Origin: a virus
Lineage: Duplodnaviria > Caudoviricetes
Strand: one strand, 5' to 3'
Virus record (IMG/VR): IMGVR_UViG_3300037467_001195
Coordinates: 1 to 41,990 of that record
Length of the DNA: 41,990 bases
The translations under genes were made by a program, and so were the position numbers. Shown one piece after another: positions 7,878-22,068 of the stretch (the stretch's first letter is position 1; every line of letters starts with the position of its first letter). The notes under the pieces were generated by a model that saw only the letters and a program-made list of their open reading frames with translations, was not told the origin of the DNA and did not search any database.

Positions 7878-8236
7878 GCGAAGACCGCAAATTGCTGGAG
7901 CTGGCTGCTAAGGCGGCGGGGATGAATGTTTTGCCGCAGGACGAGCAGTGGCCGCGCGATGCGGTGGGTTGGTTCTTCACGGCGCGTCAAGGCGACAACA
8001 CGCTCTATTCAAATGAGCGCCCCGCAACGTGGAACCCTCTCACTGAGGATGGCGATGCGCTTCGTCTGGCGGTGAAGTTGCGACTGCATGTTGACCACGC
8101 CACACAAGATGTAGCGGTGTGGGTCATCGACGGGACCGGAGCGCGAGACTTCGAAGAACGTAACGACTCCGACCCCTACGCTGCCACTCGTCGCGCAATC
8201 GTTCGCGCTGCGGCTGCTATCGGAGAAGCGAAATGA
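7874..8236 (+). CDS. Hypothetical phage protein
   Basis: RKLLELAAKAAG..WNPLTEDGDALRLAVKL..ATRRAIVRAAAAIG, a common phage early-protein pattern. Confidence 0.8.
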   Translation: MSEDRKLLELAAKAAGMNVLPQDEQWPRDAVGWFFTARQGDNTLYSNERPATWNPLTEDGDALRLAVKLRLHVDHATQDVAVWVIDGTGARDFEERNDSDPYAATRRAIVRAAAAIGEAK

Positions 8237-8394
8237 GCGAAGCCCTCAAGAAGCGTTTACTCGATCGCACCTTCAAGTACACGAAGGCCAGCGAAACCGA
8301 TGTGGCCCGCACCTTCGCACGCATCCGCAAGCAGCAAAAGGAAGCTCAGGCCAAGCGGCCGGCAAAGGTGGAACCGATCAAAAGGAGAGCGTGA
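8233..8394 (+). CDS. Small basic protein (53 aa)
   Basis: Manual translation MSEALKKRLLDRTFKYTKASETDVARTFARIRK...; coupled at both ends. Confidence 0.65.
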   Translation: MSEALKKRLLDRTFKYTKASETDVARTFARIRKQQKEAQAKRPAKVEPIKRRA

Positions 8395-8660
8395 TGTACG
8401 AATGTGTATCGAACGCCTGCGGCCAAGGTCGCATGAACTGCCCCACACCCATGCAGTGCTCCGGCGCTGCCGAGGAAACCGATGCAGCCATTCGCCTGTA
8501 TCGCGCAATGCACGCGCCGATTGAAGACTACCCCATGCCATCGCCCGAAGGAACCATCAGCGCAACAAGGCTTGCCCTGATCTCTATCGGCTGGCTTGCT
8601 GTTGTCGGATTTGTCGCATGGGTGATCTATGCGGCTTGGCCTTTGTTCGGGGTGCTGTGA
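8394..8660 (+). CDS. Hypothetical protein with Cys motif and C-terminal TM helix
   Basis: CVSNACGQGRMNCPTPMQC; hydrophobic C-terminus. Confidence 0.7.
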   Translation: MYECVSNACGQGRMNCPTPMQCSGAAEETDAAIRLYRAMHAPIEDYPMPSPEGTISATRLALISIGWLAVVGFVAWVIYAAWPLFGVL

Positions 8661-8923
8661 TGAACGCACGCCTTCAAATCGTCCACCCTGCTCACTACAC
8701 GGCTGTCGTTTCTCCGTGGGGCTTCGACATGGAATGCGACTACTCGTATGACCCAGGCGAATCGGCCAATTATGACTTGCGCAGCAACCCCGCTCCTGGC
8801 ACCCCGGCAAACGCAGAACTGATCGCCTGCCGCGTCAACGGTGTGGACATCACCGAAATGGTGAGTCTCTGTCAGCGCGAATTCATCGAAGAAAAGCTCA
8901 TCGAGCAAATGGAAGGAATGTGA
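8660..8923 (+). CDS. Hypothetical protein
   Basis: MNARLQIVHP...; TGATG coupling. Confidence 0.7.
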   Translation: MNARLQIVHPAHYTAVVSPWGFDMECDYSYDPGESANYDLRSNPAPGTPANAELIACRVNGVDITEMVSLCQREFIEEKLIEQMEGM

Positions 8924-8925
8924 TC

Positions 8926-9450
8926 GTGAGCAGCAAGACCCACTACCGCAAAGCCTTTGACTCGCCTTACCTGTCCAGCGCGGACATCGTTGATCCCACC
9001 GTCCTCACCGTCAAGTGCGTTCGCTTGGAGTCCGACAAGACGAAGAAGACGAAGGACCAATTCAACACGGCTTATTTCGTGGAGGCGGAAATCCGCCCCG
9101 GCGAAAAGCTCAAGCCGATGATCCTCAATGCGACGAACAGCAAGACCATGAAGGGCTTGACCGGTTCGGCTTTCATCGACGACTGGAACGATGTGCGCGT
9201 GACGGTCTATGTGGATCACAACGTCAAGTTCGGCAAGGAATCGGTCGAGGGGCTGCGCATCAGCCCACAGCCTCCCGCCGTCAAGAAGTGGCTGACTCCC
9301 GAAATGACCAAGGCATGGAACAACGCCAAAGCCGCATACAAGCGCGACGGCAATCTTGATGCGGTGCTGTCTCGCGCCGATATGACGCCGGAGCATCAGG
9401 GGCAACTGATCAAAGAGTGCGCGCCTGCACAGGAGGTTGCCGATGCGTAA
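8926..9450 (+). CDS. Putative ssDNA-binding/annealing partner of the exonuclease
   Basis: THYRKAFDSPYLSSADI...KPMILNATN...GLRI; directly upstream of YqaJ gene; function inferred from synteny. Confidence 0.5.
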   Translation: MSSKTHYRKAFDSPYLSSADIVDPTVLTVKCVRLESDKTKKTKDQFNTAYFVEAEIRPGEKLKPMILNATNSKTMKGLTGSAFIDDWNDVRVTVYVDHNVKFGKESVEGLRISPQPPAVKKWLTPEMTKAWNNAKAAYKRDGNLDAVLSRADMTPEHQGQLIKECAPAQEVADA

Positions 9451-10078
9451 GTTTCACGACATCGAGCAGAACACGGACGACTGGCATGCGCTGCGCCTCG
9501 GAAAAGCGACCGCATCCAACTTCGGGTGCTTCATGGCGAACTATGGTGCGGCCTTCGGCGATCCGGCCAAAAGGTACGCGCTGCAAATCGCGCTGGAAAT
9601 CCTGACCGGCAAGAAGGCCGAATTCAGCTTCTCGAACGAACACATGGAGCGCGGCCACGAGCAAGAACCCGTCGCCAAGATGCTCTATGCCGAAGAGACA
9701 TTCGCTACGGTGGAGCGCGGCGGCTTCTTCGACTGCGGCCGATACGGCGATTCACCTGATGCTCGCGTGGGCGAAGAGGGTCTGATCGAAGTCAAATCGG
9801 TGATCGCGCCGACGCACTACGCCACCATCCAGCGCGGAACATTCGACCCTGCGTACAAGTGGCAGCTTGTCGGCCATCTTGATTGCTCGGGCCGCGCGTG
9901 GGTGGACTTCGTGAGCTATTGCGCCGACTTCCCTCTTGGCTCGCAACTGTTCATCCATCGCCTGCACCGCGACGAGTGCAAGGACGAACTGGCTATGTTG
10001 CACGAACGCCGCGAGCAATTCCTCAAGCTCGTTGACAGCACGGTCGAGACGATCCGCGAGAAGGTGATCGCCGCATGA
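9443..10078 (+). CDS. YqaJ/lambda-exonuclease family protein
   Basis: IEQNTDDWHALRLGKATAS, MERGHEQEP, SPD, EVK, WQLVGHL...WVDFVSY. Confidence 0.92.
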   Translation: MRKFHDIEQNTDDWHALRLGKATASNFGCFMANYGAAFGDPAKRYALQIALEILTGKKAEFSFSNEHMERGHEQEPVAKMLYAEETFATVERGGFFDCGRYGDSPDARVGEEGLIEVKSVIAPTHYATIQRGTFDPAYKWQLVGHLDCSGRAWVDFVSYCADFPLGSQLFIHRLHRDECKDELAMLHERREQFLKLVDSTVETIREKVIAA

Positions 10079-10407
10079 GCCTCGCCTCTTCCGTCATGAC
10101 CCTAATGCGCCGCCTGGAGTGTGCAACAGTGGACGACTTGTGCCCGCACCTTCCCGGATACACGCGAGATCAGGTGATGACGGCGATGCAAAACGCCCGC
10201 GTGCTGGGGCTGCTTACTTGTGAAGGGCATCAGCCGCGCAGATCAGCCGGAGGCGGTCGCGGTTCGGTCCCATCGACCTATCGCTTCGTGGCGATGCCGA
10301 CGCACAAAGAGCGACAGCCGCGCCCTGCCTCGGACTATCTCCCTCTTCGCCGGCGCGAACTTCGGCCTCGCGTTGCGTCCGTGTTTGAGCTGGCACAGCA
10401 CATCTGA
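10075..10407 (+). CDS. Hypothetical protein, possible winged helix
   Basis: Coupled ORF, 110 aa. Confidence 0.65.
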   Translation: MSLASSVMTLMRRLECATVDDLCPHLPGYTRDQVMTAMQNARVLGLLTCEGHQPRRSAGGGRGSVPSTYRFVAMPTHKERQPRPASDYLPLRRRELRPRVASVFELAQHI

Positions 10408-10414
10408 AAACACC

Positions 10415-10804
10415 ATGACATCACCCACCCAAGATGCATCAGAGCGCGCCGAGTTCGAGAAGTGGGCGCGCTCACTGAATGTGAATGTGAGCGACAGGGA
10501 CGATGGCGGCGACTACTACTGGCCCTTCGCACAAGCGGCGTGGCAAGCATGGCAGGCTCGCGCAGCTCTCAGCGCCCCCCAAGACAGCGGATGGCAGCCG
10601 ATAGATACGGCTCCGAAGGATGGGACGCGCGTGCTCATCGCGTTATGGGCATGGAATCAGCCGAACACCGAGAGGCTGTACTACTGGGCTGAATTCTGCG
10701 AGGGCGAATGGTGCGAGCCTGACAACCTCGACATCCAGTATTTCGCGCCCACGCACTGGAGACCACTTCCACCGCCTCCGGGCGAACAGCAGGAGGGGAA
10801 GTGA
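10415..10804 (+). CDS. Ea-region modular protein with DUF551-like C-terminal domain
   Basis: ERAEFEKW..AWQAWQARAAL linker, WQPIDTAPKDGTRVL...PTHWRPLPPPP. Confidence 0.85.
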   Translation: MTSPTQDASERAEFEKWARSLNVNVSDRDDGGDYYWPFAQAAWQAWQARAALSAPQDSGWQPIDTAPKDGTRVLIALWAWNQPNTERLYYWAEFCEGEWCEPDNLDIQYFAPTHWRPLPPPPGEQQEGK

Positions 10805-11058
10805 TGGACAGTCTTGACCGCAAATTCACCTGCAAGGAGTGCGGCAAGCACTGCTACGAAAGTGAAGTGCTGCATGCGCCGAATCCTTTCGACCCCACAA
10901 ACATTCTCGTTGGTTGCCCGACATGCAAGCAGGTCAACGAGCTTCTTCTCGTCTGCGATGAGCCGTTTTGCTGGAAAGAGGCTACGTGTGGAACGCCAAT
11001 CTCCAACGGCGGCTATCGGCAGACCTGTTTCGAACACAAACCGAAGGCATCTAAATGA
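10804..11058 (+). CDS. Cys-rich zinc-binding hypothetical protein
   Basis: CKEC, CPTC, CDEPFC, C..H. Confidence 0.7.
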   Translation: MDSLDRKFTCKECGKHCYESEVLHAPNPFDPTNILVGCPTCKQVNELLLVCDEPFCWKEATCGTPISNGGYRQTCFEHKPKASK

Positions 11059-11639
11059 ACACCCCCGAACCAAAGAGCACAGAGCCCCTAGTGCATGCGG
11101 CGCGAATCGCTTTATCGGTGTTGCAAGTCGCGCGACCCTACGTGTTGGGATACCAAGACCCCGACTTGCTGGCGATCAAGGCGGATATGCAGACCGCTGC
11201 CGATGCATTGCGCTCTGCCCTTGCCGAAGTCGAATCCTCCCTCAAGACAAGAGGAGGGATAGAGCCGCCCGAACAGCGCAAATTGCTGGAAGAGATCATT
11301 CGTGTCATCGGGCCGAATCAGACAAGTGCAACCTCTGTCCGATGCCGTTCCTGCGGCTTCGTATGGGACGCAGGCGGTCCAGCGCATCACGCCGCCGATT
11401 GCTTGCACATGCGCGCCCGCTCTCTTCTAGGACAGGACAGCGCAGCGCCGAGCGGGGCAGCACGGCCACTGACGAGCGAAGAAGAGGAAGCCGCATGGGA
11501 CAGCATCACTGAGCAGGAATGCTCATGCTGCACGGCTGCTGTGCGCCTGTTCTGCCGCATCAACGGAATCGCGCTTGCGGACTCTGGCGTGCCATCCGTC
11601 TTACTGGATGCACAGAAGGGAGGTAACAGCGATGGCTGA
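11055..11639 (+). CDS. Modular hypothetical protein with Gly-Val tail
   Basis: Coupled ORF; CRSC..H..C module; ends SGVPSVLLDAQKGGNSDG. Confidence 0.7.
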   Translation: MNTPEPKSTEPLVHAARIALSVLQVARPYVLGYQDPDLLAIKADMQTAADALRSALAEVESSLKTRGGIEPPEQRKLLEEIIRVIGPNQTSATSVRCRSCGFVWDAGGPAHHAADCLHMRARSLLGQDSAAPSGAARPLTSEEEEAAWDSITEQECSCCTAAVRLFCRINGIALADSGVPSVLLDAQKGGNSDG

Positions 11640-11853
11640 TAAGCCGGGATGGAGAGAAGGCATCCCCTGCCCTGAATGCGGCTCGTTTCTCAGTGAAGTC
11701 ATTCAGACGCGACGATGGAGTGGCTGCATCGTGCGCCGTAGGCGCTGCTTCGATGGACATGTTTTCCACACGCAAGAGCACGTCGGCGGTGACAACTTGT
11801 TCAGAGCCAGCGAGGCGGAACGAAGCAGGTACAGAAAGAAAGTGGAAGCATGA
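11632..11853 (+). CDS. Zinc-ribbon protein (NrdR N-terminus-like)
   Basis: CPECG..SEVIQTR..VRRRRC..GHVFHTQE; GGAGG RBS. Confidence 0.75.
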   Translation: MADKPGWREGIPCPECGSFLSEVIQTRRWSGCIVRRRRCFDGHVFHTQEHVGGDNLFRASEAERSRYRKKVEA

Positions 11854-11894
11854 CTCAGCAACACACAAATGGCGTGGAAGGAACGAAGCGATGA
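11850..11894 (+). CDS. Mini-ORF MTQQHTNGVEGTKR
   Basis: ATGA overlap at both ends; core in frame. Confidence 0.55.
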   Translation: MTQQHTNGVEGTKR

Positions 11895-12196
11895 GTCGCG
11901 AACAGCAACTGGAACAGGCGTTGCTCAGCCTCATGCGCGGCTACGTGAGCGCGCTCGAAAACGGGCGCGACCGCATCCTGATGCTCGGCGGTCAATGTGA
12001 TCCGGTCGAGGTGATGGAACGCAGCGATCCCCATCTTCGAGAAGCCCGCGTTGCTCTCGGCCTGCATCCATGCGGGCACATGAAGGGCAACTGTCCGCAG
12101 TGCCACCAATGCCTGCTGGACAAGGGCGAGGCATCGTGCCCGGTCTGTGAACCCGCCTATGGCGTGGATTCACTTGACGGAGCGAAACATGGCTGA
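11891..12196 (+). CDS. Modular hypothetical protein (helical plus Cys-rich module) with Gly-Val tail
   Basis: MSREQQLEQALL...CPQCHQC..CPVCEPAYGVDSLDGAKHG. Confidence 0.75.
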   Translation: MSREQQLEQALLSLMRGYVSALENGRDRILMLGGQCDPVEVMERSDPHLREARVALGLHPCGHMKGNCPQCHQCLLDKGEASCPVCEPAYGVDSLDGAKHG

Positions 12197-12875
12197 CCTC
12201 AAACAGTGCCCGTGCTGCGGACAACCTTGGCGCGAAAAGGTCGCGCCCGTGCAGGGATACGCGCCCGGAATTCCGTGGTCGATTCACCTTGAGGCATACG
12301 CCGCTTACTGCAAGCGATGGGGGCCGCAAGAGGCATTGATCGACTTGGAAGGCCGCTACTGTCGCGGCGGCTTCGGCACCGAAGAACTCGACGGCTTCGT
12401 GCCGGGATGGCGTGAGCGCGTTTCCGAGATTCACCTGCTACGCAAACGCATCGCAGAACTGGAAGCCGCCTCTGGCGTGCAACTGGCTCGCGCACCCCTG
12501 AGCATCGAGCTACTGAAGCTGTTGGAGGACATCGAGTTGTGGACGCGCCAAGTGTCCGAACTTGCCCAGATTCCGCGAGGCGTCAGGCTCGCAGCCGACA
12601 GGCTCAGCAAGCGCGCCACGGCGGAACTGGACGTCGCCTACGGCGTGGACCCGGATGGCGCATTCACCGAAGCGACGCTCGCCGGATGCGAACAGACGCA
12701 GCGCAAGGTCGAAGAAATCGGCGAGCGCAGTGCGGCCGCGGCCGAGAAATTCGGCCTTGGCTCAGCAGGTACTCGTGGCGTGCAGCCGGATCATTTTCCT
12801 GAAGCCGGGAAGATGATCGGAGAGCCCGGTCGCCTGTCACCCGATGCGCCGAGCGGGGAGAACGGCAATGGCTGA
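12189..12875 (+). CDS. Modular protein with three internal Gly-Val junctions
   Basis: MADLKQCPCCG...SGVQ...YGVD...SAGTRGVQ...GENGNG; GGAG RBS. Confidence 0.75.
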   Translation: MADLKQCPCCGQPWREKVAPVQGYAPGIPWSIHLEAYAAYCKRWGPQEALIDLEGRYCRGGFGTEELDGFVPGWRERVSEIHLLRKRIAELEAASGVQLARAPLSIELLKLLEDIELWTRQVSELAQIPRGVRLAADRLSKRATAELDVAYGVDPDGAFTEATLAGCEQTQRKVEEIGERSAAAAEKFGLGSAGTRGVQPDHFPEAGKMIGEPGRLSPDAPSGENGNG

Positions 12876-13329
12876 CCAACAGCGCACGGAATTCGACTAC
12901 CTGCTGAATTCGATGGAGCACGCAGCGCGCGAGGCTCATCCGGCGAAGGCAGGCTACGCGGGTAAGCGCAAGGCCTTGTTCGCCTACGTCCGAGAGCTGG
13001 AGCGCAAGGCCGCGCTGTATGACGCTCGTGGCGTGCAGCCGTCGCAAGCGCCGAGCTATACGTGGCCGCCGAAAGCATGCCCATGTGGAACGGTGATGCA
13101 GGGCGAATGCCTCGATGACGGCTGCAAATGGCAACGCGATCCGTCGCTCGTCCCCGAGGCCCTTCGAGTGCCCCTTGGCGTGCACCCGCCTGAAGCGCCG
13201 AGCCGCGAAGACCTTGTGAGCCTACTGGATGAAGTGCGCCAGTGCTTCACCCGCGATGACGCTTTGCCCGACGACTTGCTGCCGCGAATCGACACGGCCA
13301 TTGATGGCGTGCAGGAGAACGGCAAATGA
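12868..13329 (+). CDS. Modular protein with three Gly-Val junctions
   Basis: MADQQRTEF...RGVQPSQAPS...LGVHPPEAPS...DGVQENGK. Confidence 0.75.
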   Translation: MADQQRTEFDYLLNSMEHAAREAHPAKAGYAGKRKALFAYVRELERKAALYDARGVQPSQAPSYTWPPKACPCGTVMQGECLDDGCKWQRDPSLVPEALRVPLGVHPPEAPSREDLVSLLDEVRQCFTRDDALPDDLLPRIDTAIDGVQENGK

Positions 13330-13700
13330 AGATCGAACTCAAGTGCAAGTGCGGCGCTGAGGCAACGTGGACCGACGAGCGCGGAGCCTACGCGGCAGGC
13401 GTCAACGGACACGCGAACGAGCGCGGCTTCCGATACCTCATCGAAGAACGTGCAGACGAGTGGCAGCAGCGGCACAAGGTCTGCCTGCTCGCAGACGCCA
13501 GAGCCACGCTGACAGGTGCCGCTGGCGTGGCAGAGCCGACACCAACCGAGCGCAAGGCGGGCGCGACGGTCAGGATTTGCCCGAGCACGCAGCGCCTCTG
13601 CTACGAGGGATGCCGGGCCGGGCCGTGCGCGTACGCCGAAAGCTCAGCAGGTACTCGTGGCGTGCCGGGTGCGGGCAAAACGGCTGACGGAGGGATGTAA
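13326..13700 (+). CDS. Modular protein with two Cys-containing modules
   Basis: MKIELKCKCG...AGVAEP...CPSTQRLCYEGCRAGPC..SAGTRGVPGAGKT. Confidence 0.75.
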   Translation: MKIELKCKCGAEATWTDERGAYAAGVNGHANERGFRYLIEERADEWQQRHKVCLLADARATLTGAAGVAEPTPTERKAGATVRICPSTQRLCYEGCRAGPCAYAESSAGTRGVPGAGKTADGGM

Positions 13701-13940
13701 ATGGAAACAGAAACGATTGACCGGCTGTTCCTTGAGCTGTCGCAGTTCACGCGAGCGACGACGGCCAAAGAGGTTCGATTGCAAGCCCGCGTTGCCGAGC
13801 TTGAGAAGGCAATTCAACCATTTGCCGAACTGGTCCGCACGACGAACGGACGCATCCCGCACGAGCGCCTGTCAGCAGCGGATTGGCACGAGCTTGCGAA
13901 AGTCGCTTCTGGCGTGCAGGAGAACGGCAATGGCCGGTAA
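13701..13940 (+). CDS. Hypothetical protein with Gly-Val tail
   Basis: GGAGGG RBS; ends SGVQENGNGR. Confidence 0.75.
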   Translation: METETIDRLFLELSQFTRATTAKEVRLQARVAELEKAIQPFAELVRTTNGRIPHERLSAADWHELAKVASGVQENGNGR

Positions 13941-14202
13941 CGCTCGCGCCCGCTACTTCACCGAGTTCATGAAGAAGTGGTATCCGATGTTCTCGCGTCG
14001 CGCTACGCAGCTTTGCATCCTGAGCAGCGCGATGGAAAAGATCGCACTTGGCGCGCCTGACGCGCGGGCCATCGCAATTCTGGCGCTTGAGCAATCTGAC
14101 CCGTTCGGATGGAAGCAAAGGCGCGACCCGTTGATGGTTGTAGCCGGATTGCTGCCCGACTCAGCAGGTACTCGTGGCGTGCAGGAGAACGGCAATGGCT
14201 AA
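13930..14202 (+). CDS. Hypothetical protein with Gly-Val tail
   Basis: RBS and ATG supplied by the repeat arm; ends SAGTRGVQENGNG. Confidence 0.7.
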   Translation: MAGNARARYFTEFMKKWYPMFSRRATQLCILSSAMEKIALGAPDARAIAILALEQSDPFGWKQRRDPLMVVAGLLPDSAGTRGVQENGNG

Positions 14203-14347
14203 GCCTCCGCGCAATCCCTTCAAGCCGCACGGTCGGAATTTCCCCGGTGCGCAATTGCCGCCAAAACCACAGCCGAAGAAAGACGTATCTGGCGTGGCGG
14301 GTGCGGGCAAAACGGTTCCTGAAACTCGTAACAACACGGAGAACTGA
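14195..14347 (+). CDS. Small Pro/Lys-rich protein (50 aa)
   Basis: Manual translation MAKPPRNPFKPHGRNFPGAQLPPKPQPKKDVSGVAGAGKTVPETRNNTEN. Confidence 0.6.
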   Translation: MAKPPRNPFKPHGRNFPGAQLPPKPQPKKDVSGVAGAGKTVPETRNNTEN

Positions 14348-14349
14348 CC

Positions 14350-14685
14350 ATGAAGATGGATCGCAACATCAATACGGATGGCAGCGGGAAATACGCCGTC
14401 ATCAACATGCGCAAGCTGCGTGAGCTCCGCGACGACAACCAGCAGTTCCCGCCCGAGGTCGTCGCCGCACTGCACACGCTCGCGGACTGCGGCGCGCTGG
14501 AATGGGGAGCTGCCGGAGCAGACGACGAGTTCTTCCTCATCAAGCTCAAGGACCGCCACGCCCGCGCCGCGCTGCTCGCCTACGAACGAAGCATCGAGCC
14601 GTCCGACCCTGAGTTCGCGCTCGAAGTCGCGGAGCTCGCTGCTCGCGCCGGAAAGCTAAGCCCATTCTGCAAGGAGCCGGACTGA
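14350..14685 (+). CDS. Hypothetical phage protein
   Basis: MDRNIN.DG.GKYA..EFFLIKLKDRHARAALLAY; GGAG RBS. Confidence 0.8.
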   Translation: MKMDRNINTDGSGKYAVINMRKLRELRDDNQQFPPEVVAALHTLADCGALEWGAAGADDEFFLIKLKDRHARAALLAYERSIEPSDPEFALEVAELAARAGKLSPFCKEPD

Positions 14686-14782
14686 TGAGACACGTTGATG
14701 GCGTGGTTGGCCGTGACGGTGAGACGAAATGACGCCACACGTTTCTGATCCGAAATTAAAGGTAGAGGGTGCTACGACATGA
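14685..14782 (+). CDS. Two coupled mini-ORFs: MRHVDGVVGRDGETK (14685-14732) and MTPHVSDPKLKVEGATT (14729-14782)
   Basis: Unbroken TGATG/ATGA overlap chain. Confidence 0.5.
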
Positions 14783-15339
14783 ACTTCGTTCACGAAACAA
14801 TCGAGTATTCGACCGTCAAGTGCGGCGGCTGCGGCGTGCGCTTTGCCTTCGAGCGCAGCTACTACGAAAAAAGGCTGGAGGATCACAAGACATTCCATTG
14901 CCCCAACGGCTGCGTAAGGCATTTCACCGGCAAGTCAGAGGCTGAAAGGCTGCGCGAAGAAGTCGAGCGCCAAAAGCAGATGCGCGAGGCCGAGGAAGCG
15001 CGCCGCCATCGCATCGAGCAGGAGCGCGACCAAATCCAGCGCGCCCACACGCGAATGCGCAAGCGGGTGATGAACGGCGTGTGCCCCTGCTGCAACCGCA
15101 CGTTCCAGAACCTGATGCAGCACATGCAGACGGAACACTCGGGCGAATTCAATCTGCGCACCGTGCGGACAGCCTTCGGCATGTCGCAAAAGCAAGTGGC
15201 CGAGGAAATCGGCGTGCAGCATGCCTACGTGTCGCTGCACGAGCGCGGGAAGCCCGTTCCCGACTACGCCGCCCGCGCGCTGGAATCGTGGGTCGATCAG
15301 CACGCAGGGGCATCCGGGGTAGAGGGTGCTCTGAAGTGA
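14779..15339 (+). CDS. Zn-finger, coiled-coil, C2H2 and XRE-HTH fusion protein
   Basis: CGGC..CPNGC; CPCCNRTFQNLMQHMQTEH; LRTVRTAFGMSQKQVAEEIGVQHAYVSLHERG. Confidence 0.8.
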   Translation: MNFVHETIEYSTVKCGGCGVRFAFERSYYEKRLEDHKTFHCPNGCVRHFTGKSEAERLREEVERQKQMREAEEARRHRIEQERDQIQRAHTRMRKRVMNGVCPCCNRTFQNLMQHMQTEHSGEFNLRTVRTAFGMSQKQVAEEIGVQHAYVSLHERGKPVPDYAARALESWVDQHAGASGVEGALK

Positions 15340-15374
15340 GTGAGCCGCAATTGCAACAAGTACGAGGTCAATTG

Positions 15375-15794
15375 ATGGACGACCTGCTCACGATCGAACA
15401 CATCGCGCAGATGTGGCACTGCTCAACCCGACACGCCCGAGACGTGCTGGTGCGGAAGCCGGGGTTTCCGCCTTTGCGTCCAGTCAACGGCCGGCCGCGC
15501 TGGAGCCGACAAGAGATCCACAACTTCATCCACCGAAAGCCGCTTGATACCCCAGGCGAGCATTGTCTCTACCGGCATTTCGACTCGGCCGGCGTGCTGC
15601 TCTACATCGGGGTATCGCTATCGGCCGTGGAGCGTCTCAGCGCCCATAACCGCACAGCTCGCTGGGCGGACAAGATTGCGCGAGTGGAAATCGAGCGGTT
15701 CCCCACGCGAAAAGCGGTTCTGGATGCAGAAGCAGCGGCGATCAAGGCTGAGTCACCGCGTTACAACTACCAGCATAACCGAGCACCCAAATGA
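15375..15794 (+). CDS. Xis/AlpA-like HTH fused to GIY-YIG nuclease domain
   Basis: DLLTIEHIAQMW...RKPGFP..PRWS, then LYRHFDSAGVLLYIGVS..RL..H..E..AIK.E.PRYN; alternative GTG start at 15336. Confidence 0.78.
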   Translation: MDDLLTIEHIAQMWHCSTRHARDVLVRKPGFPPLRPVNGRPRWSRQEIHNFIHRKPLDTPGEHCLYRHFDSAGVLLYIGVSLSAVERLSAHNRTARWADKIARVEIERFPTRKAVLDAEAAAIKAESPRYNYQHNRAPK

Positions 15795-15985
15795 GCGAAC
15801 TTCTGACCTTGGATGACATCGCGAAGCTCTGGAAGGTGCGCCGCGAGTTTGCCCGCCGCTACATCGTGCGCCGGCCGGGATTCCCGGATCCAGCGCCCGG
15901 ATCCACGCGCAAGAACCTGCGCTGGCGCGAGCCCGACATTCATGCGTTCCTGCTGGGTTCCCACGAAAACGCCCACCAATCGTGA
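15791..15985 (+). CDS. xis: Excisionase (Xis/AlpA-like)
   Basis: ELLTLDDIAKLW...RRPGFPDP..LRW; adjacent to attP and integrase. Confidence 0.75.
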   Translation: MSELLTLDDIAKLWKVRREFARRYIVRRPGFPDPAPGSTRKNLRWREPDIHAFLLGSHENAHQS

Positions 15986-15998
15986 TTTCTCCAATGAC

Positions 15999-16021
15999 TT
16001 CGATTCCGGCCTCCGGCACCA
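15999..16021 (+). other. attP core, tRNA 3'-end fragment (probably tRNA-Leu)
   Basis: TTCGATTCCGGCCTCCGGCACCA = T-loop, T-stem, acceptor stem and CCA; between xis and int; isoacceptor is from recall. Confidence 0.8.
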
Positions 16022-16141
16022 CCATATGGAATGCTCGCGTATCGCAGCGTTTCGTTCCGGTGGAAAACGGTTCGTCGCGGCTCATCAGGTACGATGCCGC
16101 CCACGATCATCCCACGGGAAAGTGGGATTGCGAGGGGCGCG

Positions 16142-17098
16142 ATGTACATCCAGAAAGTCGGAGACAAGTGGCGGTGCCTGGTCGAGAAGCACGGCCACCG
16201 GCCATCCAAGACATTCGACACGAAGGTCGAAGCCCAGCGGTGGGGGAACGCCAAAGAGGTCGAGCTAGACGCCCTGAAAGGATCCAAGGGCAAGACCTTC
16301 GGCGCGGCCACGGCCTACTACCTGCTGACGGTGAGCCCGGAAAAGGTCGATGCGGTCGAGTGGGATCGCCGGCGCTTTGCGTCGATGGCCGAGTTCTTTG
16401 GATCCACAACCCCGCTGGTCAAGATCACGAGCGCCGAGGTGGGCAAGTGGCGCGACTGGCGGCTGAAGTCGGTCAAGGGGTCCACGGTGTTGCGCGAGGC
16501 GAACCTCCTGCGCAACCTTTTCCGGCTGGCGCACGACGAATGGAAGTGGATCCCGCACGAGCCGTGGAAAGGCGTGCGGTGGCCGGAGGACTCCGAAGAC
16601 AAAGAGCTTGTCTGGGGCTGGAGAGAGATCCGGCGGGTGCTGCGCTACTGCCAGCGGGGAGGCCCGAAGCAGCAGGAAGTGGGGCGCGCATTCCACATTG
16701 CCTTACGCACGGGGATGCGGCTGAACGAGGTGTTGGCGGCTCGGCTGGCCGGGACAGTCGCCGTCCTACCCCGCCAGAAGACCTCCAAGAAGAACGCGGG
16801 TCCGGTCAAGGTGCCGCTGACCCGCCACGGTCGGCGCCTGCTTGCTGCTTCGGATCCGTTCGTCGTCGGCGCGAACGAGGCGAGTACGCTGTTCAATCAG
16901 GTCTGCCAACAGGTCGGGATCCGCGCGAAGGGCGAGCCAGGGCTCACGTTTCACGACAGCCGAGCGACGTTTGCAACCCTGATGGCCCGCAAGGTGGATG
17001 TCCTGACGCTCGCGGCCCTGACCAGGCACCGGGACATCAATCTGCTGCGGCGCAAGTATTACCGCGAGACTGCCGAGCAAATAGCCTCACGGCTATGA
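16142..17098 (+). CDS. int: Tyrosine integrase, Rci/HP1-like catalytic domain
   Basis: TGMRLNE, FHDSRAT, LTRHRD, KYY catalytic motifs; ATG at 16142 with GAGGGG RBS. Confidence 0.92.
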   Translation: MYIQKVGDKWRCLVEKHGHRPSKTFDTKVEAQRWGNAKEVELDALKGSKGKTFGAATAYYLLTVSPEKVDAVEWDRRRFASMAEFFGSTTPLVKITSAEVGKWRDWRLKSVKGSTVLREANLLRNLFRLAHDEWKWIPHEPWKGVRWPEDSEDKELVWGWREIRRVLRYCQRGGPKQQEVGRAFHIALRTGMRLNEVLAARLAGTVAVLPRQKTSKKNAGPVKVPLTRHGRRLLAASDPFVVGANEASTLFNQVCQQVGIRAKGEPGLTFHDSRATFATLMARKVDVLTLAALTRHRDINLLRRKYYRETAEQIASRL

Positions 17099-17113
17099 AA
17101 GGAGAATGAGGAA

Positions 17114-17293
17114 GTGAGCGAAACAGAACTGAAGCAATTGCTAGACCGCATCAGAAATGTGGCCCCGATGACCCCTGAGCAGATATTCGAGCAAAAGATC
17201 AGTTATGTATTCGGGATGCTCGATGCAGACAACCCGCTGACCAAAGACGATGTGCGCCGCATTCTCCGAGAACAGGCGGGGTACACCCCATGA
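17114..17293 (+). CDS. Small hypothetical protein (59 aa)
   Basis: Manual translation MSETELKQLLDRIRNVAPMTPEQIFEQKISYVFG... Confidence 0.65.
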   Translation: MSETELKQLLDRIRNVAPMTPEQIFEQKISYVFGMLDADNPLTKDDVRRILREQAGYTP

Positions 17294-17505
17294 CCCCCGA
17301 CCTCCCCGAACTGCCCTTCATTCCAGAATCGAACGAACTGCGCATTCGTCTACTGGCTTGGGGAAGGCAGTGCGTGATGCAGGAGCGGGAGCGGGCGGCG
17401 AAGGTTTGCGAGGAACTGGCGACCACTCACCACGAAATCGATGATTTGCTCGAAGAGCTGATTCACTCCGATTGCGCCGCCGAGATCCGTAAGGAGCCGA
17501 AATGA
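17290..17505 (+). CDS. Hypothetical protein
   Basis: ERERAAKVCE...CAAEIR phage motif; coupled. Confidence 0.75.
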   Translation: MTPDLPELPFIPESNELRIRLLAWGRQCVMQERERAAKVCEELATTHHEIDDLLEELIHSDCAAEIRKEPK

Positions 17506-17828
17506 GCGACTACACCGACGCGCAACGCTGGCAATGGCTAGCATCGCTCAAGTGCAATTCTTTCTCGCTTGGCAGAGATGAGAACCACGCCTGCAACTAC
17601 ATGACCGCGAAGCAGTGGATCGAAGAAACCTGCCACGAAGACTTTCAGGACGTGGCGCCCGACGAGTTGCAGCGCATGAAGGACACGAACACCATTTGGG
17701 CATTGCAGATTTATCCGCATACGCCTGTTGGCTTCAATGTCTGGTACGGAGCGACCGCAGAAAGCGTCGTTGATGCGGCCATGCGTGACTATGGAGTCGA
17801 ACCCGCAGCGGCTGTCCTTGCCAGATAG
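17502..17828 (+). CDS. Hypothetical protein
   Basis: DAQRWQWL..TNTIWALQIYPHTPVGF; AAGGAG RBS. Confidence 0.8.
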   Translation: MSDYTDAQRWQWLASLKCNSFSLGRDENHACNYMTAKQWIEETCHEDFQDVAPDELQRMKDTNTIWALQIYPHTPVGFNVWYGATAESVVDAAMRDYGVEPAAAVLAR

Positions 17829-18000
17829 GGAGTCGAGGTCGCAGGCTGGTTACTGCGCTTTGTCCTCGACATGGGGGTGTCCAATATTTTTGGCATTGGC
17901 CGTGCAAATTGAAGATTCAATCTTCAAACGGCCAAGTTTCAAGGTCGATTCGCACTTCGCCGGATTGAGCTTGAAAGACTGTACGCAAGTTGCGTAGGGA

Positions 18001-18201
18001 TCACACCGCAAAGTGCGATGGCCTGAAGTTCTTCCACGCCTCAAGAATCGATCTGCCGGTAGACCAATAGATGCGATCGGTTCCGGGGAAGCCGCACATC
18101 CAGTAGCCCCGATCCAGCTTAAGACGGGGTTTTCTGCGGATGCCGATGTATTCCCCCGGCTCTGCGAATGGATGCAGGACGTGCGGAGGGATGGGTTTCA
18201 T
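18001..18201 (-). CDS. Hypothetical protein
   Basis: MKPIPPHVLHP...; ATGA overlap with upstream gene. Confidence 0.55.
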   Translation of the reverse strand: MKPIPPHVLHPFAEPGEYIGIRRKPRLKLDRGYWMCGFPGTDRIYWSTGRSILEAWKNFRPSHFAV

Positions 18202-18350
18202 TTCTGCATCCTGTCGATGACGAGAAGACCCACGTTCGCAACGCTGTAGCCAAGATAGACCACAGTGAGCGGCCAATTTCCCTTTGCTCCATAGAGCGCA
18301 GCGGCAAGGCCGTAGCAAATCGTGGGAACTAGGATCAAGGCGAAGGTCAT
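18198..18350 (-). CDS. Small membrane protein (50 aa)
   Basis: Manual translation MTFALILVPTICYGLAAALYGAKGNWPLTVVYLGYSVANVGLLVIDRMQK. Confidence 0.65.
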   Translation of the reverse strand: MTFALILVPTICYGLAAALYGAKGNWPLTVVYLGYSVANVGLLVIDRMQK

Positions 18351-18393
18351 GATCTGCGCTTCATCGGTGAAGCGTGTATTGGGAGGTTGCGCT

Positions 18394-19431
18394 TCACATG
18401 CGCCCAGCTTCGATCTCTTGAGCCGTGGGGACGCTATAGACGGGTTCTGGCGCTTTGATGTGCGGATAGCGACGGTTGATGAATTTCAACGAAATCGGCA
18501 TCAGGTCGTACACCCCATCGCAAACGTCATTCAGGATGAGGAAACCTCTCCAGTGGTTGTTCCCCTGTGGTCCTAAGTACATTTCGGTGTGTTCGTAGCA
18601 AGATCCGGCGATGATGGAAGTTAGCAGCGCACCATCGGCCCGGTAGTCGGTGGCAATCTGCAATCCTTGTTGGTGGCCCGCGATGCAGGAACAGTGCTTC
18701 TTCAGGAGTTGCGCCCGCGCCGTAGAAGCAGGGTTGCCCTTCTGCCCGGTCGTGAAGTAGTGCGAGAACGCGATTCCTTCGACCATCACCACTTCAAGAA
18801 AGGGATAGACCTCCCAGCCGAAGTCCTTGTATTTCAGGTCGTCAATCGACATCACGCCGTCTAGCTTGGCATCGTCGTTGATGGCCCGTAGAACTCTTTC
18901 CTCATGGTTCCCAAGCGTGAGCACTAAACGGGGCTTGTAGGGCCTCTTGGGGTTGCGCTCGTTGTATTCGGTGATCGGCGTCATGAAGGCCGACATCGCC
19001 CAATGCGCAGCTTCTATGTCCCGTTTGTACCGTCTGCCTTCAAACGACTTCTTGCCTTTGTCGTAGGACGACAGCGACGGCAAGTCCGCGAAGTCTCCGA
19101 TGCACACGATAATGTCGGGTCGCTTCTCTACTGCGTACTGCCCGATGCGCATCAGGAACGAGAAGTCAATCCCCGGCTTGGCCTGGACATCCGGAATCAC
19201 CATGATCCGCTTACCCTCGTCGCTTTGGCGGGGTGGAATCTTCTTTGGCTTGTGAATGCCAGCCTTCTTGCACAGGACGGCGACGGTCTTTGAGTAGTAG
19301 GCATGGTTGGCTCCGTCTGCTAACGCAGCGGGCCTCGCACCTCCATACTTTTGAATCGACCTGAGAATTTGCGCCTGCGTCTCGGTTGCGAACTCGAAGA
19401 GAGCCTCGTCAACCTTGGTAGGGGCAACCAC
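18394..19431 (-). CDS. Calcineurin-like metallophosphoesterase
   Basis: VIPDVQ, IGDFAD, LGNHE, FSHY, AGHQQ motifs. Confidence 0.85.
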   Translation of the reverse strand: MVAPTKVDEALFEFATETQAQILRSIQKYGGARPAALADGANHAYYSKTVAVLCKKAGIHKPKKIPPRQSDEGKRIMVIPDVQAKPGIDFSFLMRIGQYAVEKRPDIIVCIGDFADLPSLSSYDKGKKSFEGRRYKRDIEAAHWAMSAFMTPITEYNERNPKRPYKPRLVLTLGNHEERVLRAINDDAKLDGVMSIDDLKYKDFGWEVYPFLEVVMVEGIAFSHYFTTGQKGNPASTARAQLLKKHCSCIAGHQQGLQIATDYRADGALLTSIIAGSCYEHTEMYLGPQGNNHWRGFLILNDVCDGVYDLMPISLKFINRRYPHIKAPEPVYSVPTAQEIEAGRM

Positions 19432-19432
19432 G

Positions 19433-19705
19433 TTAGGCTTTCCGGTCGTACTGCTCTAGGAACTGATGGAGCATGTTTCCTTGGGAGTCCACTTCGGTTT
19501 CGTCATGATCGTCCTTACCCAAGGTGTAGCGGATCGCATGCTGTAGTTCGTGGCAGAACGTCGCAGCCTTCATCTGATCCGTCAGGTCTTTGCGAAGACG
19601 AATCACCGCAGCTTCTGAATCGCAGTGCCCCATATCGGAGATTGCCGCCGACTCTTCGACGGTCCAGCGAGTGCCGGCCAATTGGAATGATTTGAGGATC
19701 TTCAT
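19433..19705 (-). CDS. Small HExxH metallopeptidase-like protein
   Basis: TFCHELQHAI...E. Confidence 0.7.
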   Translation of the reverse strand: MKILKSFQLAGTRWTVEESAAISDMGHCDSEAAVIRLRKDLTDQMKAATFCHELQHAIRYTLGKDDHDETEVDSQGNMLHQFLEQYDRKA

Positions 19706-19842
19706 TGCCCCAGCTCCCAGATCAAAACGCCGCAGAAAAACGCGCCAACGACAAGACCGCCCAGCCAACTGCCCAAGGCATACCCAATCAACCAGCAAGT
19801 CGCCTCTATCGCGCAGCAAGTGGTAAACAGGACGGTGGGCAT
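19702..19842 (-). CDS. Small membrane protein (46 aa)
   Basis: Manual translation MPTVLFTTCCAIEATCWLIGYALGSWLGGLVVGAFFCGVLIWELGQ; ATGA overlap. Confidence 0.5.
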   Translation of the reverse strand: MPTVLFTTCCAIEATCWLIGYALGSWLGGLVVGAFFCGVLIWELGQ

Positions 19843-19845
19843 AGG

Positions 19846-20274
19846 TCAAATCCGCGCGAGTAAAGACTCAGCTTCCATCGCCGCTTGAACTTGCTGGGTC
19901 TGCGCGTTGTTCGGCTTGTCCCAATGAGACTCACCGAATGACCGAACGGCCACGTAGAACGCATTTGCCGAGAACTCGCTATATCCGCAGGCAAGCATGG
20001 CCTCGCGAAGCAGCTTGTCCGCTGTGGCCCTGTCGCAGAATTGCGTGGAGTAGGCCCAGTCGTGGACTACCGCCGCCTTGTCTCCCTTGCCTCCGGCTGC
20101 CAGGTACACGAAAGGAAGTCTCGGCACCGAAGCAAAGTCAGTCACGAACCCCTGAGGGACCGTTAGGACTCGGCCGAGCAAGTCGGAGCGATAGGAGAAG
20201 TCCGCAAGCAGTGTCCATAGCCCCTTGAGTTCGTCGGTTTCCTCCACTCGAAGAGGAGTGAGGAATTCGCTCAC
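19846..20274 (-). CDS. DUF1353-family protein
   Basis: VPQGFVTDFASVPR..KAAVVHDWAY..RATAD..AVR.FG. Confidence 0.85.
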   Translation of the reverse strand: MSEFLTPLRVEETDELKGLWTLLADFSYRSDLLGRVLTVPQGFVTDFASVPRLPFVYLAAGGKGDKAAVVHDWAYSTQFCDRATADKLLREAMLACGYSEFSANAFYVAVRSFGESHWDKPNNAQTQQVQAAMEAESLLARI

Positions 20275-20606
20275 TTCGCACCCGACGCGGCTTGAGCCGG
20301 GACTTGGACCGTAATGTTGATCGGCTGCGTCTTGTCGAACAGGCTGTTCGGATCGGCCGAGCCGTTCGTGCAGGAGGCCTTGATCGCCGCGACCGACTGT
20401 GGGTTGCGGATCGCAGCGCCCACCGATGTCCCTTCGCACAGCGCCGCGAGGGTCACAGCCAGCTTGTTGTCGTTGATCTGCTTAAGGCCGGAATATGCCG
20501 CGCTTTCGTAGCCGGTGACGGCTTGCTGGAATGCTCCGAAACCCGCGCAGCCAGACAAGCATGCGGCGAGGAATAGGGCCGAGAGGATCAGGAATACGCG
20601 TTTCAT
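20271..20606 (-). CDS. Lipoprotein in lysis module, possible spanin component
   Basis: MKRVFLILSALFLAACLSGC lipobox. Confidence 0.7.
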   Translation of the reverse strand: MKRVFLILSALFLAACLSGCAGFGAFQQAVTGYESAAYSGLKQINDNKLAVTLAALCEGTSVGAAIRNPQSVAAIKASCTNGSADPNSLFDKTQPINITVQVPAQAASGAK

Positions 20607-20776
20607 TGAGAGGCTCCTTGGTTGGATGCGAGGTGATAAGCCCCAAGTCCCGTCAGGACGTTGGAACAGGCAAGGGTGATTTGGGAGACATCGATGTCTG
20701 CCCAGAAGTGCTTTGCAATGACAGCGGCGCACCAGACCACGGCAGCGAACGTGCCGACATAGAGTTTGTCGAGCAT
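20603..20776 (-). CDS. Small holin-like membrane protein (57 aa)
   Basis: Manual translation MLDKLYVGTFAAVVWCAAVIAKHFW...LACSNVLTGLGAYHL; AAGGA RBS. Confidence 0.55.
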   Translation of the reverse strand: MLDKLYVGTFAAVVWCAAVIAKHFWADIDVSQITLACSNVLTGLGAYHLASNQGASQ

Positions 20777-20823
20777 AGGAATCCTTCGGGCTCACGCGGC
20801 CCGTGTTGCGGGATGAGGAAAAT

Positions 20824-21291
20824 TCAGTGCGCCGGGTACTTTTCGGCGCAGGCTCGCCAGTCGGCGTAGATGCAGCTCTGTGCTTCCCTGAGATCAATCT
20901 GACCCGAGCAAACCAGCTTGTGAAGGCGCACTTCGAGCGCGTCTTTCAGGTGGGCTTGTGTATCCAGCCCATCGGCATCCTTGGGTGTTTCGACCGGATT
21001 TCCGTACCACTGCTGGATGCGAAGGTTTCGCGGGTCTTGCGGAGCGCCGCCAAGGACAAGGCTGATAACGTGGTCCAACTCAAAGCTCGCCGCATCACTT
21101 CTGGCGATGCCTAACGAGTCCATCTTTGCAATCTTGATCTTGTTCGTGATGGAGACTCGTGGGCGAACCGGTTTGTCCCAATTGGGGACACAGACGGTTG
21201 ATTTGATGTTCTCCGGAGTGACATCCGGATTCACCGGTAGATCCTGGGCAAACACTGAGCATGCGAGCAAGAGCCCACTCCATGCGGTCAT
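20824..21291 (-). CDS. Putative exported HNH-like (His-Me) protein
   Basis: Signal-like LLLACSVFA; FELDHVISLVLGGAP.DPRNL; start uncertain. Confidence 0.65.
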   Translation of the reverse strand: MTAWSGLLLACSVFAQDLPVNPDVTPENIKSTVCVPNWDKPVRPRVSITNKIKIAKMDSLGIARSDAASFELDHVISLVLGGAPQDPRNLRIQQWYGNPVETPKDADGLDTQAHLKDALEVRLHKLVCSGQIDLREAQSCIYADWRACAEKYPAH

Positions 21292-21342
21292 GGTCGCGCG
21301 AATAGTAGGCAAGCCTGATCTCCGTCTTGAGTTGTTCAAGGT

Positions 21343-21786: not shown

Positions 21787-21788
21787 CC

Positions 21789-21953
21789 TTACCGCCCGTG
21801 AATCCAGCGTTGCACTGTCTTCGTCTCGTAGATGCGAATCGCGCTCCAGATCAGCGATGCGAGAGCCGCCAACGGGGGAAGCCATGCCGCAAGTGCAGCA
21901 AGAGCTGTCCCGACAGAGATCGCGTCTATCCAGTGCTTAACGTGGTCGTTCAT
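21789..21953 (-). CDS. Putative holin (54 aa)
   Basis: Manual translation MNDHVKHWIDAISVGTALAALAAWLPPLAALASLIWSAIRIYETKTVQRW; AAGGAG RBS; precedes endolysin. Confidence 0.7.
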   Translation of the reverse strand: MNDHVKHWIDAISVGTALAALAAWLPPLAALASLIWSAIRIYETKTVQRWIHGR

Positions 21954-22035: not shown

Positions 22036-22068
22036 AAGAAAAGAAAACCAGCGAAATCGGATTAGTAA

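Follow-up and report, generated by a model that had tools for sequence, protein, structure and literature searches.

A seven-base core as a candidate fixed exchange point for in-frame cassettes in otherwise unrelated phages

Why should one seven-letter word, read in one codon phase, recur at joint after joint along a row of tiny phage genes? The question is raised by the window, the whole 41,990-nt stretch of viral DNA analysed here, in which a first-pass annotation had picked out 15 copies of GGCGTG and proposed them as crossover points between shuffled cassettes. Rechecked in the sequence, all 15 positions (11586 to 14700) lie on the + strand; T precedes 14 of them and C the remaining one (12642), and this T fills the wobble position in seven different codons. 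The copy at 12409 is out of frame, and the GGC-GTG pairs downstream (14833, 15076, 15211 and 15591) are each preceded by C. The Gly-Val reading of the cores also holds, with two of them lying in mini-ORFs of 14-15 codons (11850-11894 and 14685-14732) that the gene caller used had missed. The array (Table 1) comprises 14 in-frame TGGCGTG cores and one C-variant, and no minus-strand core was found from 8102 to 22504.

Table 1. Sites, cassettes and neighbouring genes in the window
Feature	Position	Strand	Details
Upstream recombination module	8926..10078	+	Unnamed phrog_21613 protein and YqaJ-type exonuclease; context, a candidate only under a rival explanation
Whole cassette array	11576..14714	+	15 sites of 25 bp in one orientation, each with a 9-bp arm on either side of a 7-bp core; early-left operon, between YqaJ-type exonuclease and xis/int genes
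Core 1, left border of array	11585..11591	+	Left arm fits consensus poorly (leave-one-out score -8.4); block from here 100% identical over 105 nt in G001, other left flank
Core 2	11870..11876	+	Within 14-codon mini-ORF 11850-11894, whose head is joined via 8 other letters to core 4 in at least 4 runs
Core 3	12160..12166	+	67 nt from here 87% identical in G002; left flank differs
Out-of-frame TGGCGTG	12408..12414	+	No arms, score -3.6; a chance copy outside the system
Stop-free domain cassette, core 4 to core 6	12473..12782	+	303 bp; core-to-core piece in runs X5 and X10 (among the matches listed); last 127 nt 100% identical in G001 and G003, right flank different in each
Variant core CGGCGTG	12641..12647	+	In frame, good arms; probably an inactivated site, because shared pieces cross it unbroken
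Recurrent 15-bp left-end module	12761..12775, also 13643, 14160	+	Precedes 8 different right flanks in four phages
Cassette, core 6 to core 7	12776..13035	+	Tail of 32 codons whose stop overlaps the next start, then the body of gene 12868
Two stop-free domain cassettes	13029..13311	+	147 and 129 bp; cores 13029, 13176 and 13305, inside gene 12868-13329
Cassette	13305..13529	+	7-codon tail with ribosome-binding site, then start and body of gene 13326
Stop-free domain cassette	13523..13664	+	135 bp; core-to-core contig in run X4
Cassette	13658..13916	+	13-codon tail and body of gene 13701
Cassette	13910..14181	+	98.9% identity in unrelated 64-kb phage G001; runs X6 and X10
Recurrent right-end module	13917..13934, also after 13305, 14175	+	Carries a ribosome-binding site plus a start codon; exact matches follow 6 distinct left flanks
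Cassette	14175..14296	+	95.9% identity in G002, exactly core to core, neighbours differ; also run X10
Last cassette	14290..14705	+	Tail; gene 14350-14685, from an unnamed viral family with 46 relatives; mini-ORF 14685-14732; G002 relative stops on core
Excisionase-like gene and 318-aa tyrosine integrase	15791..17098	+	Downstream of array; context

The proposed enrichment of this word persists under codon-aware nulls. The array genes hold 14 in-frame T-GGC-GTG in 1,244 codons, versus 0.53 expected when the protein is fixed and synonymous codons are redrawn (maximum 5, 20,000 draws) and 0.19 when codon order is shuffled (maximum 3, 5,000 draws); the genome outside the array has 2 in 11,476 codons. 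Over both strands of the whole window, TGGCGTG occurs 22 times, against a shuffle mean of 8.3 and maximum of 14 (100 shuffles). A motif kept at the level of protein, as a Gly-Val linker or cleavage site, is countered by the finding that 15 of the 17 Gly-Val pairs have the identical two codons and the preceding wobble T. The idea that inter-core segments are mutually unrelated stood for their bodies but not for their ends, where modules of 15-25 bp recur beside cores (families D3, D4, D7 and D8).

The same core forms arrays in 13 further phage contigs, giving 114 sites with those of the window, in phages that are otherwise unrelated. The 98 cassettes have a median length of 203 bp, and every core is on the coding strand. 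Among sites inside called genes, 94 of 95 are in frame, the phase is always T-GGC-GTG, and all 39 stop-free cassettes have a length that is a multiple of three. Because the core phase is fixed, each cassette has one of two effects on the protein encoded upstream: it adds a domain, or it closes the protein with a short tail in which the next gene has its ribosome-binding site and start.

Comparison of these phages places the breaks at the cores. Shared pieces of 96-100% identity start or end on a core with different neighbours; one in G001 spans 273 nt, from the T of one core to one base past the next, and differs from the window on both sides, and one in G002 spans 122 nt. Among untruncated ends of shared blocks of at least 50 nt, 13 of 26 lie no more than 1 nt from a core edge in each of the two partners; 40 of 129 distinct block starts lie on the core T, and 37 of 128 distinct block ends on its last G or one base past. 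Relatives are not colinear with the window, and homology does not break off at random. Comparison thus bears out the cores as crossover points at which cassettes, whether genes or domains, have been inserted, lost and reordered. Secondary breakpoint peaks lie at -15 to -18 and +24 to +27, and a tyrosine-recombinase mechanism leaves them unexplained.

Every sequence is an uncultured assembly, in which repeats of 22-40 bp might mislead the assembler. Against chimeras, core-to-core pieces are present in the assembled public runs X4, X5, X6 and X10 (among the matches listed), alternative joints are bridged by single contigs with hundreds of letters on each side (X7, record 19; X10, record 11), and the cassette order of the window recurs in contigs of X1, X4, X5, X6 and X8. 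Assembly chimerism and the protein-level motif are largely refuted, and we consider them very improbable. In the contigs of 8 of the 13 listed runs, among the matches listed, no excised circle or clean core-to-core deletion was seen.

Joints might also be made without any dedicated enzyme, by phage annealases, RecA or end-joining at short shared ends, with selection for frame and expression concentrating them on the core. Ends do often have modules of 22-40 bp in common, the extra breakpoint peaks include -15 and start codons, the general recombination genes of array phages vary (YqaJ, ERF, RecA-like, Gp2.5-like), and the shuffling of PeSLs has been attributed to such recombination (excerpt of PMC2839356). 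However, exchange within a shared end module cannot make a new left-right pair, and such pairs abound: 112 junctions fall into 86 left classes, 66 right classes and 110 pairs, exceeding a one-to-one history by at least 49 (34 at a stricter cut-off) and including two four-way cycles. Outside the core, the sequence common to alternative partners averages 0.61 and 0.48 nt, compared with 0.49 and 0.59 for random pairs; identity is 7 bp alone and therefore too little for ordinary homologous recombination, lying below the minimal pairing segments of Red-beta (23-27 bp) and RecA (31-34 bp) (excerpt of PMC3945230). Selection for frame, moreover, needs no single 7-mer, no wobble T and no mirror-image arms; the wobble T is present in 56 of 56 cases versus 10.3 expected, a count that follows from how the set was constructed. 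We regard pairing at short ends as unlikely; if it were right, the array would be less of a novelty.

The arms lend the core a recognizable anatomy. Flanks and core read ASNCRCYNN-TGGCGTG-NNRGYGNST, with the core as spacer of a degenerate inverted repeat. A left-arm profile applied to reverse-complemented right arms scores z=5.95 in training and z=9.2 on 35 right arms that had not been used for it. This holds for no register other than the core-centred one (z of 1.6 and -3.7 at offsets -1 and +1). At synonymous positions, given the amino acid, the signal persists (-9A z=7.7, +9T 8.1, -6C 5.4, +6G 3.2, -3Y 6.8, +3R 3.9), and A/T at positions 12, 15 and 18 stays between -1.9 and 1.9. By leave-one-out arm score, 45 array sites exceed 40 non-array TGGCGTG (p=2e-12, the sites not being independent). 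The arms are weak signals of about 4.6 and 3.0 bits; agreement with the consensus at every position is seen at 1 of 112 sites, and the right flank that occurs most often is a poor match to it.

In sites of tyrosine recombinases such as those of lambda and Cre, the binding arms are inverted and enclose an asymmetric spacer of 6-8 bp, whose sequence has to be the same in both partners. The array sites share this simple-site feature, and on sequence grounds inverted arms with a 7-bp core have the anatomy of a tyrosine-recombinase site; arm, 7-bp spacer and arm is also the layout of sfx, used by a tyrosine recombinase (excerpt of PMC11852207). The left arm is in addition complementary to the core GGCG (0.46-0.81 per position, -3 to -6), which allows a second dyad reading. 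A sequence-specific enzyme of another class, for nicking or strand transfer (HUH/Y1, topoisomerase IB-like, or nuclease plus repair), might then cut the core, perhaps via a CRCY-GGCG mini-hairpin with a 3-nt loop: in left flanks, resemblance to the reverse-complemented core exceeds that of controls (z=5.5), G-T pairs can form with the pyrimidines found at -3 and -4, and G011 encodes a PHROG-annotated topoisomerase. The hairpin nevertheless accounts for neither the right-arm signal nor the -9A/+9T pair, with pairing at position 9 of 0.15 versus 0.36 under the 7-bp model; 12 folds of six sites stay at background (z -0.95 to +1.09), and arms do not co-vary within a site (z=0.02) or between a cassette's own ends (z=-0.86, 97 cassettes). 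Such an enzyme appears doubtful.

We looked for the recombinase itself. No protein family was common to more than 5 of 13 array phages, G001 and the window share only cassettes and two tail-region genes, and no tyrosine integrase was found in the complete phages G001, G011 and G013 (the scan covering 43 of 75 G011 and 44 of 68 G013 proteins of 100-900 aa). This absence is soft, because a real integrase in G012 was missed by both PF00589 and our own profile. On these two grounds, the lack of a common protein and of an integrase in three complete phages, the enzyme likely acts in trans. Neither chromosomes nor viruses yielded a "home" site beside a recombinase: the consensus matched in 1 of 151 Burkholderiaceae genomes versus 3 control matches, and of the 17 matches in viruses 15 stood alone.

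A nearer candidate would be the window's own integrase (16142-17098), or that of each temperate phage in cis, using cores as secondary attachment sites, and a tyrosine integrase does lie 0.4-2.7 kb downstream of the array in the window, G003, G006, G008, G010, G012 and G014. The end of the early-left operon is, however, the ordinary location of int. Array-phage integrases form several groups, mutually 22-32% alike, while the core is identical; G003 and the window have cassettes in common with integrases 47% identical; and no array was found beside the five examined of six Burkholderiaceae relatives (38-55% identity), nor any core near int. We find this cis role improbable.

The comparison drawn earlier with integrons holds as a concept, in that both are co-oriented arrays of small unrelated mobile cassettes; in substance there is no attC hairpin (own-end pairing z=-0.86, 97 cassettes), no GTTRRRY core and no integron integrase, with six array-phage integrases (two partial) all below the TIGR02249 cut-off of 265 (best 55.7 bits). 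CALINs lack IntI by definition. Phage-borne CALINs are integrase-less arrays usable in trans by a bacterial enzyme, and the integron R-box is defined by a core G-TTRRRY with inverse core RYYYAAC, in contrast to TGGCGTG / CACGCCA at the 114 sites (excerpt of PMC9892861). Here, too, sites lie within coding sequence in one phase, and domains and tails shuffle besides genes.

In the shufflon, in-frame crossover switches the C-terminus of PilV. Its Rci/sfx system likewise comprises numerous sites whose arms enclose a 7-bp spacer that does not vary, and it needs no cis cofactor beyond the enzyme (excerpts of PMC11852207 and PMC4176322). However, the sfx core is GTGCCAA with a fully conserved right arm and the other arm free (sfx table, excerpt of PMC4176322), whereas both arms here are degenerate mirror images. 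Inverted sfx sites allow inversion only; the array sites are co-oriented, and cassettes differ in content rather than orientation and are gained, lost and moved between genomes. The rci gene is adjacent and encodes an extra C-terminal domain, whereas no adjacent enzyme is shared here and the 318-aa window integrase ends about 12 residues past its last tyrosines.

In dif sites, arms of 11 bp that are AT-rich and differ from each other flank a spacer of 6 bp; the array sites, with GC-rich symmetric arms and an invariant spacer for which the register test favours 7 bp, appear to differ. In Acinetobacter plasmids, pdif sites resemble the array in flanking accessory modules that host XerC/XerD moves in trans among unrelated replicons, but they are inversely oriented and outside genes rather than direct and in frame (excerpt of PMC9455709). 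The PeSLs of T4-type phages, and with them the Botstein-Campbell linker model, resemble the array in having repeats in a hyperplastic early region where small ORFans insert, delete and replace; PeSLs place a promoter and stem-loop between genes, long enough for homologous recombination (excerpt of PMC2839356), whereas 11585-14705 has no + strand promoter-like or terminator-like match, folds are at background, joint identity is 7 bp and sites cross phage types. The array is set apart from the known kinds by these failed feature tests and by its absence from the literature, no paper on a TGGCGTG core having been found in open-access sources.

Collectively, we favour, at slightly better than even odds (about 0.55), the reading that TGGCGTG is the fixed exchange point of a shared array, a 7-bp spacer in a site that a tyrosine recombinase likely binds and recombines, the enzyme coming in trans from the host or from a mobile element resident alongside. 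Two monomers per site would bind the arms on double-stranded DNA, and strand exchange would require identity over the 7 bp, which would explain an invariant core with drifting arms. Co-oriented sites could release circles that re-enter at any other core, or arms could be swapped between co-infecting or resident phage genomes, and selection would keep the array where it is, in an early operon that is not essential. New bodies may enter the array through an additional, coarser kind of exchange, which uses start codons and the -15 module.

More tentatively, and at somewhat less than even odds, lytic and temperate phages without common genes may share one 25-bp site, kept within early genes, and a phase-locked exchange driven by a host or element tyrosine recombinase. 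If so, the phages of a single bacterial group would trade and splice domains, tails and whole mini-genes among themselves. Such a network would be the phage equivalent of same-phase exon shuffling, and would resemble an integron while acting on double-stranded DNA and within reading frames. The cargo is almost without family matches, and the cassette products are probably host-interaction factors. A recombinase that tolerates degenerate arms and demands a 7-bp match in coding sequence would be a useful tool for in-frame assembly. How phages acquire their mosaicism, at the level of genes and of parts of genes, has long been asked, and the usual answers are illegitimate joins filtered by selection or relaxed homologous recombination. 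Exact 7-mer joints and mirror arms across phages that share almost nothing point instead to a dedicated route, testable with a 25-bp substrate, in which the fixed codon phase would make exchange a generator of new multi-domain proteins.

Every coordinate and count in the first-pass annotation held on recheck: the window array comprises 14 TGGCGTG cores reading T-GGC-GTG, one in-frame copy with C replacing T (12641) and one out-of-frame copy (12408). A synonymous-codon null with proteins fixed (20,000 draws) gave a mean of 0.53 in-frame cores and a maximum of 5, an enrichment that bears out the earlier claim that the constraint acts on DNA; the remainder of the window genome holds 2 in-frame cores in 11,476 codons.

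Exact flank patterns retrieved three IMG/VR contigs with further cores: G001 (64 kb, complete, 15 cores), G002 (15) and G003 (2). Three scans for two cores plus the left-arm pattern returned 81, 71 and 55 loci, from which ten further arrays (G006–G014 and L301) were chosen by core density and by eye, with limits set by eye, a selection that is built into the frame and tail counts. In total, 14 contigs yielded 114 sites (one doubled via a terminal repeat) and 98 cassettes, the segments from core to core, of 75–860 bp (median 203). The array phages include 40–57 kb temperate types and 64–86 kb types encoding their own DNA polymerase. One of them, G011, carries a 7-deazaguanine pathway (QueC, FolE, QueD-like, QueE-like and tRNA-guanine transglycosylase-like; L405 2310–13672, L404 12783–13235) that probably serves DNA modification. 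A metagenome scan using the −15 module gave 4 loci and 0 arrays, 121 loci from a three-core viral scan were rejected as tandem repeats or chance, and all 39 loci from a genome scan were rejected as chance. DNA of the window array had no match among cultured phages and plasmids, and two other arrays had matches at domain level only; an array was lacking from five such regions of cultured phages and from Variovorax phage VarioGold.

All 39 stop-free cassettes have lengths that are multiples of three, the remaining 59 contain an in-frame stop, and 67 of 108 sites sit within 25 codons of a stop; 94 of 95 sites within called genes are in frame, with 13 sites outside called genes. This fixed phase and stop placement indicate that exchange either joins domains together or puts on the upstream gene a different tail, one that doubles as the start of the following gene. 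The segments had been described as mutually unrelated, which does not hold for cassette ends, where copies of a 15-bp left-end module and of several right-end modules are found repeatedly. A 15-bp module reading Ser-Ala-Gly-Thr-Arg (window 12761, 13643 and 14160, and in G001–G003) closes many unrelated cassette bodies, and the letters before it often start like a core; one copy, at G002 15360, is directly followed by a mutated core. Such a module could be what is left of a second site, or a route of capture for new bodies.

Comparison of inter-core segments with other phages, the check proposed at first pass, found shared pieces that start or end on cores, with differing neighbours. Apart from array pieces, G001 and the window have just two tail-region genes in common. 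Window 13910–14182 recurs in G001 at 98.9%, its first base being the T of one core and its last lying one base past the next; two further G001 blocks are 100% identical to the window, with their untruncated ends on cores, and 14175–14296 recurs core to core in G002 at 95.9%. The 15 shared blocks of at least 50 nt have 26 untruncated ends, of which 13 lay no more than 1 nt from the edge of a core in each partner, against about 0.4 expected from spacing by our own estimate; a single block present in three genomes accounts for three of the rows. Resolved more finely, 129 block starts included 40 placed on the T, and 128 block ends included 37 placed on the core's final G or one base beyond; lesser peaks stood at −15 to −18 and at +24 to +27.

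Parts of the window array are present in 13 public sequencing runs (X1–X13), every one labelled soil or rhizosphere; nine hold half or more of it, X11–X13 hold small shares, and three of the runs may be where it came from. Among the contig pieces listed for eight runs (32 of 254 and 32 of 102), core-to-core segments were found at 12473–12782 (X5, X10), 13910–14182 (X6, X10), 14175–14296 (X10) and 13523–13664 (X4), a mini-ORF head at 11850 was joined to the core at 12473 (X6, X7, X10; protein recorded as P0173), and no circles were seen. The X6 and X10 contigs repeat the order and flank of G001, and are therefore further samples of that phage rather than new arrangements; a joint from 14296 to 14699 in X9, and joints at 12782, 13329 and 13932, were kept out of the deletion count, the letters between the joined ends being unspecified. 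In G001, a 32-codon membrane-like mini-gene (L177:2717–2815) carries the array's ribosome-binding tail module at its end with no core before it, showing that the tail module itself serves as an exchange point there.

Breakpoints of this kind might also come from general recombination at short common ends, with no dedicated enzyme. A crossover within a shared end module swaps bodies and makes no new left–right pair. Among 112 junctions with full flanks, 110 distinct pairs were formed from 86 left and 66 right classes, exceeding the best one-to-one matching by 49 (34 at a stricter cut-off) and including two four-way cycles. Alternative partners have about half a base in common beyond the core, the same as random pairs; the minimal pairing segment for Red-beta is 23–27 bp in the accessible text of PMC3945230. 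Array exchange is not ordinary homologous recombination, and our probability for the core as exchange point is roughly 0.93.

The 9-bp arms on either side of the core, with distinct left flanks A-S-N-C-R-C-Y-N-N and right flanks N-N-R-G-Y-G-N-S-T, are mirror images around its middle base. A left-arm profile from four phages scored z=5.95 on reverse-complemented right arms and z=9.2 on 35 unseen right arms from ten new arrays, the latter being free of the search pattern that partly forced the new left arms; other registers gave z between −3.7 and 1.7, and a mirror control gave −1.4. On either side, positions 3, 6 and 9 fall at wobble bases; the preferences persist when the amino acid is fixed and when gene-end codon usage is the reference. 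The out-of-frame copy is without arms; the C-variant has them and, in a small sample, is crossed uninterrupted by shared pieces, as would be expected of a dead site. No arm covariation was found within sites or between one cassette's own ends, and folding of six sites on either strand did not exceed background, observations that together make recognition of duplex DNA by a protein more likely than an attC-type hairpin. Two points count against that reading: the arms hold few bits, and GGCG within the core is mirrored by the left arm as well. Operator-like GCGAWTCGC palindromes in the G002 immunity region (L181:7821–7852 and L181:9381–9411) reach the top arm-profile scores, probably by coincidence; less probably, a repressor-like fold reads the arms.

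The leading candidate for the enzyme is a tyrosine recombinase working in trans, which we favour at slightly better than even odds. No protein family occurred in more than five of 13 array contigs (BLASTP 1e-4, L301 excluded), and array-phage integrases, where found, fall into several distant groups. No integrase was detected in the complete G001 (74 of 101 called proteins scanned), G011 or G013, negatives of limited weight, since the G012 integrase escaped two of the three methods. G013 encodes a small serine resolvase; in G011 there are an annotated topoisomerase and a RecA-like protein. Scans revealed no high-scoring site near int, and no home site beside a recombinase in Burkholderiaceae genomes or viral contigs. 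The two-core pattern occurred in 13 of 401 Burkholderiaceae genomes, about equal to a reversed control, with 0 arrays. Integrase relatives exist in Burkholderiaceae at 38–55%; the nearest cultured relatives (34–38%) are Burkholderia, Pseudomonas and Ralstonia phages.

The window, one 41,990-base virus record, is laid out like a temperate short-tailed phage.

Features of the window phage (window coordinates)
Feature	Position	Strand	Content
Terminase, portal, scaffold, capsid, ejection proteins		-	
NinB, NinG, repressor region			
Early operon	promoter match 6674	+	sigma-70-like promoter match, YqaJ-type exonuclease, excisionase-like genes, tyrosine integrase
phrog_21613 protein	8926-9450		precedes YqaJ exonuclease
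Fine mosaic	10379-11466		5' of first core; joints 10453, 10582, 10797, 11084, 11091, 11460
Array	11576-14714	+	TGGCGTG cores
Excisionase-like fusion	15336-15794		excisionase-like HTH fused to GIY-YIG domain, then second excisionase-like gene
Small genes	17114-17828	+	three genes, 3' of integrase

The fine mosaic lacks TGGCGTG, includes a DUF551 domain and has 39–49 nt blocks in common with G002; its joints are present in several runs, and it may represent a junction system that is older, or of another kind. Around the three small genes the search for an attP or tRNA piece came up empty; in this region G003 and G004 exchange differing integrase and downstream blocks. The unnamed phrog_21613 protein, also found in G010 (32898–33422), occupies the usual place of an annealing protein and has neither a known family nor a known structure. 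A tRNA search found none, Rfam gave no match across 9000–19000, a defence-system search of cassettes gave no match, and an Atlas look-up returned only unnamed viral clusters.

The array works like a site-specific cassette system, and this part of the earlier integron-like reading stands; the integron label does not, as the array departs from the defining features of integrons (PMC9892861), and likewise of shufflons (PMC11852207, PMC4176322) and T4-type PeSL cassettes (PMC2839356), as far as the accessible portions of those sources describe them. In comparison with pdif modules (PMC9455709, accessible portions), the array's register test favoured a 7-bp spacer (z of 1.6 and −3.7 at offsets −1 and +1) and its arms are GC-rich. 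Accessible portions of PMC9658991 were covered as well, and neither the TGGCGTG motif nor a phage cassette site locked in phase was found described in the mostly open-access literature. We regard the finding as real, surprising and directly testable.
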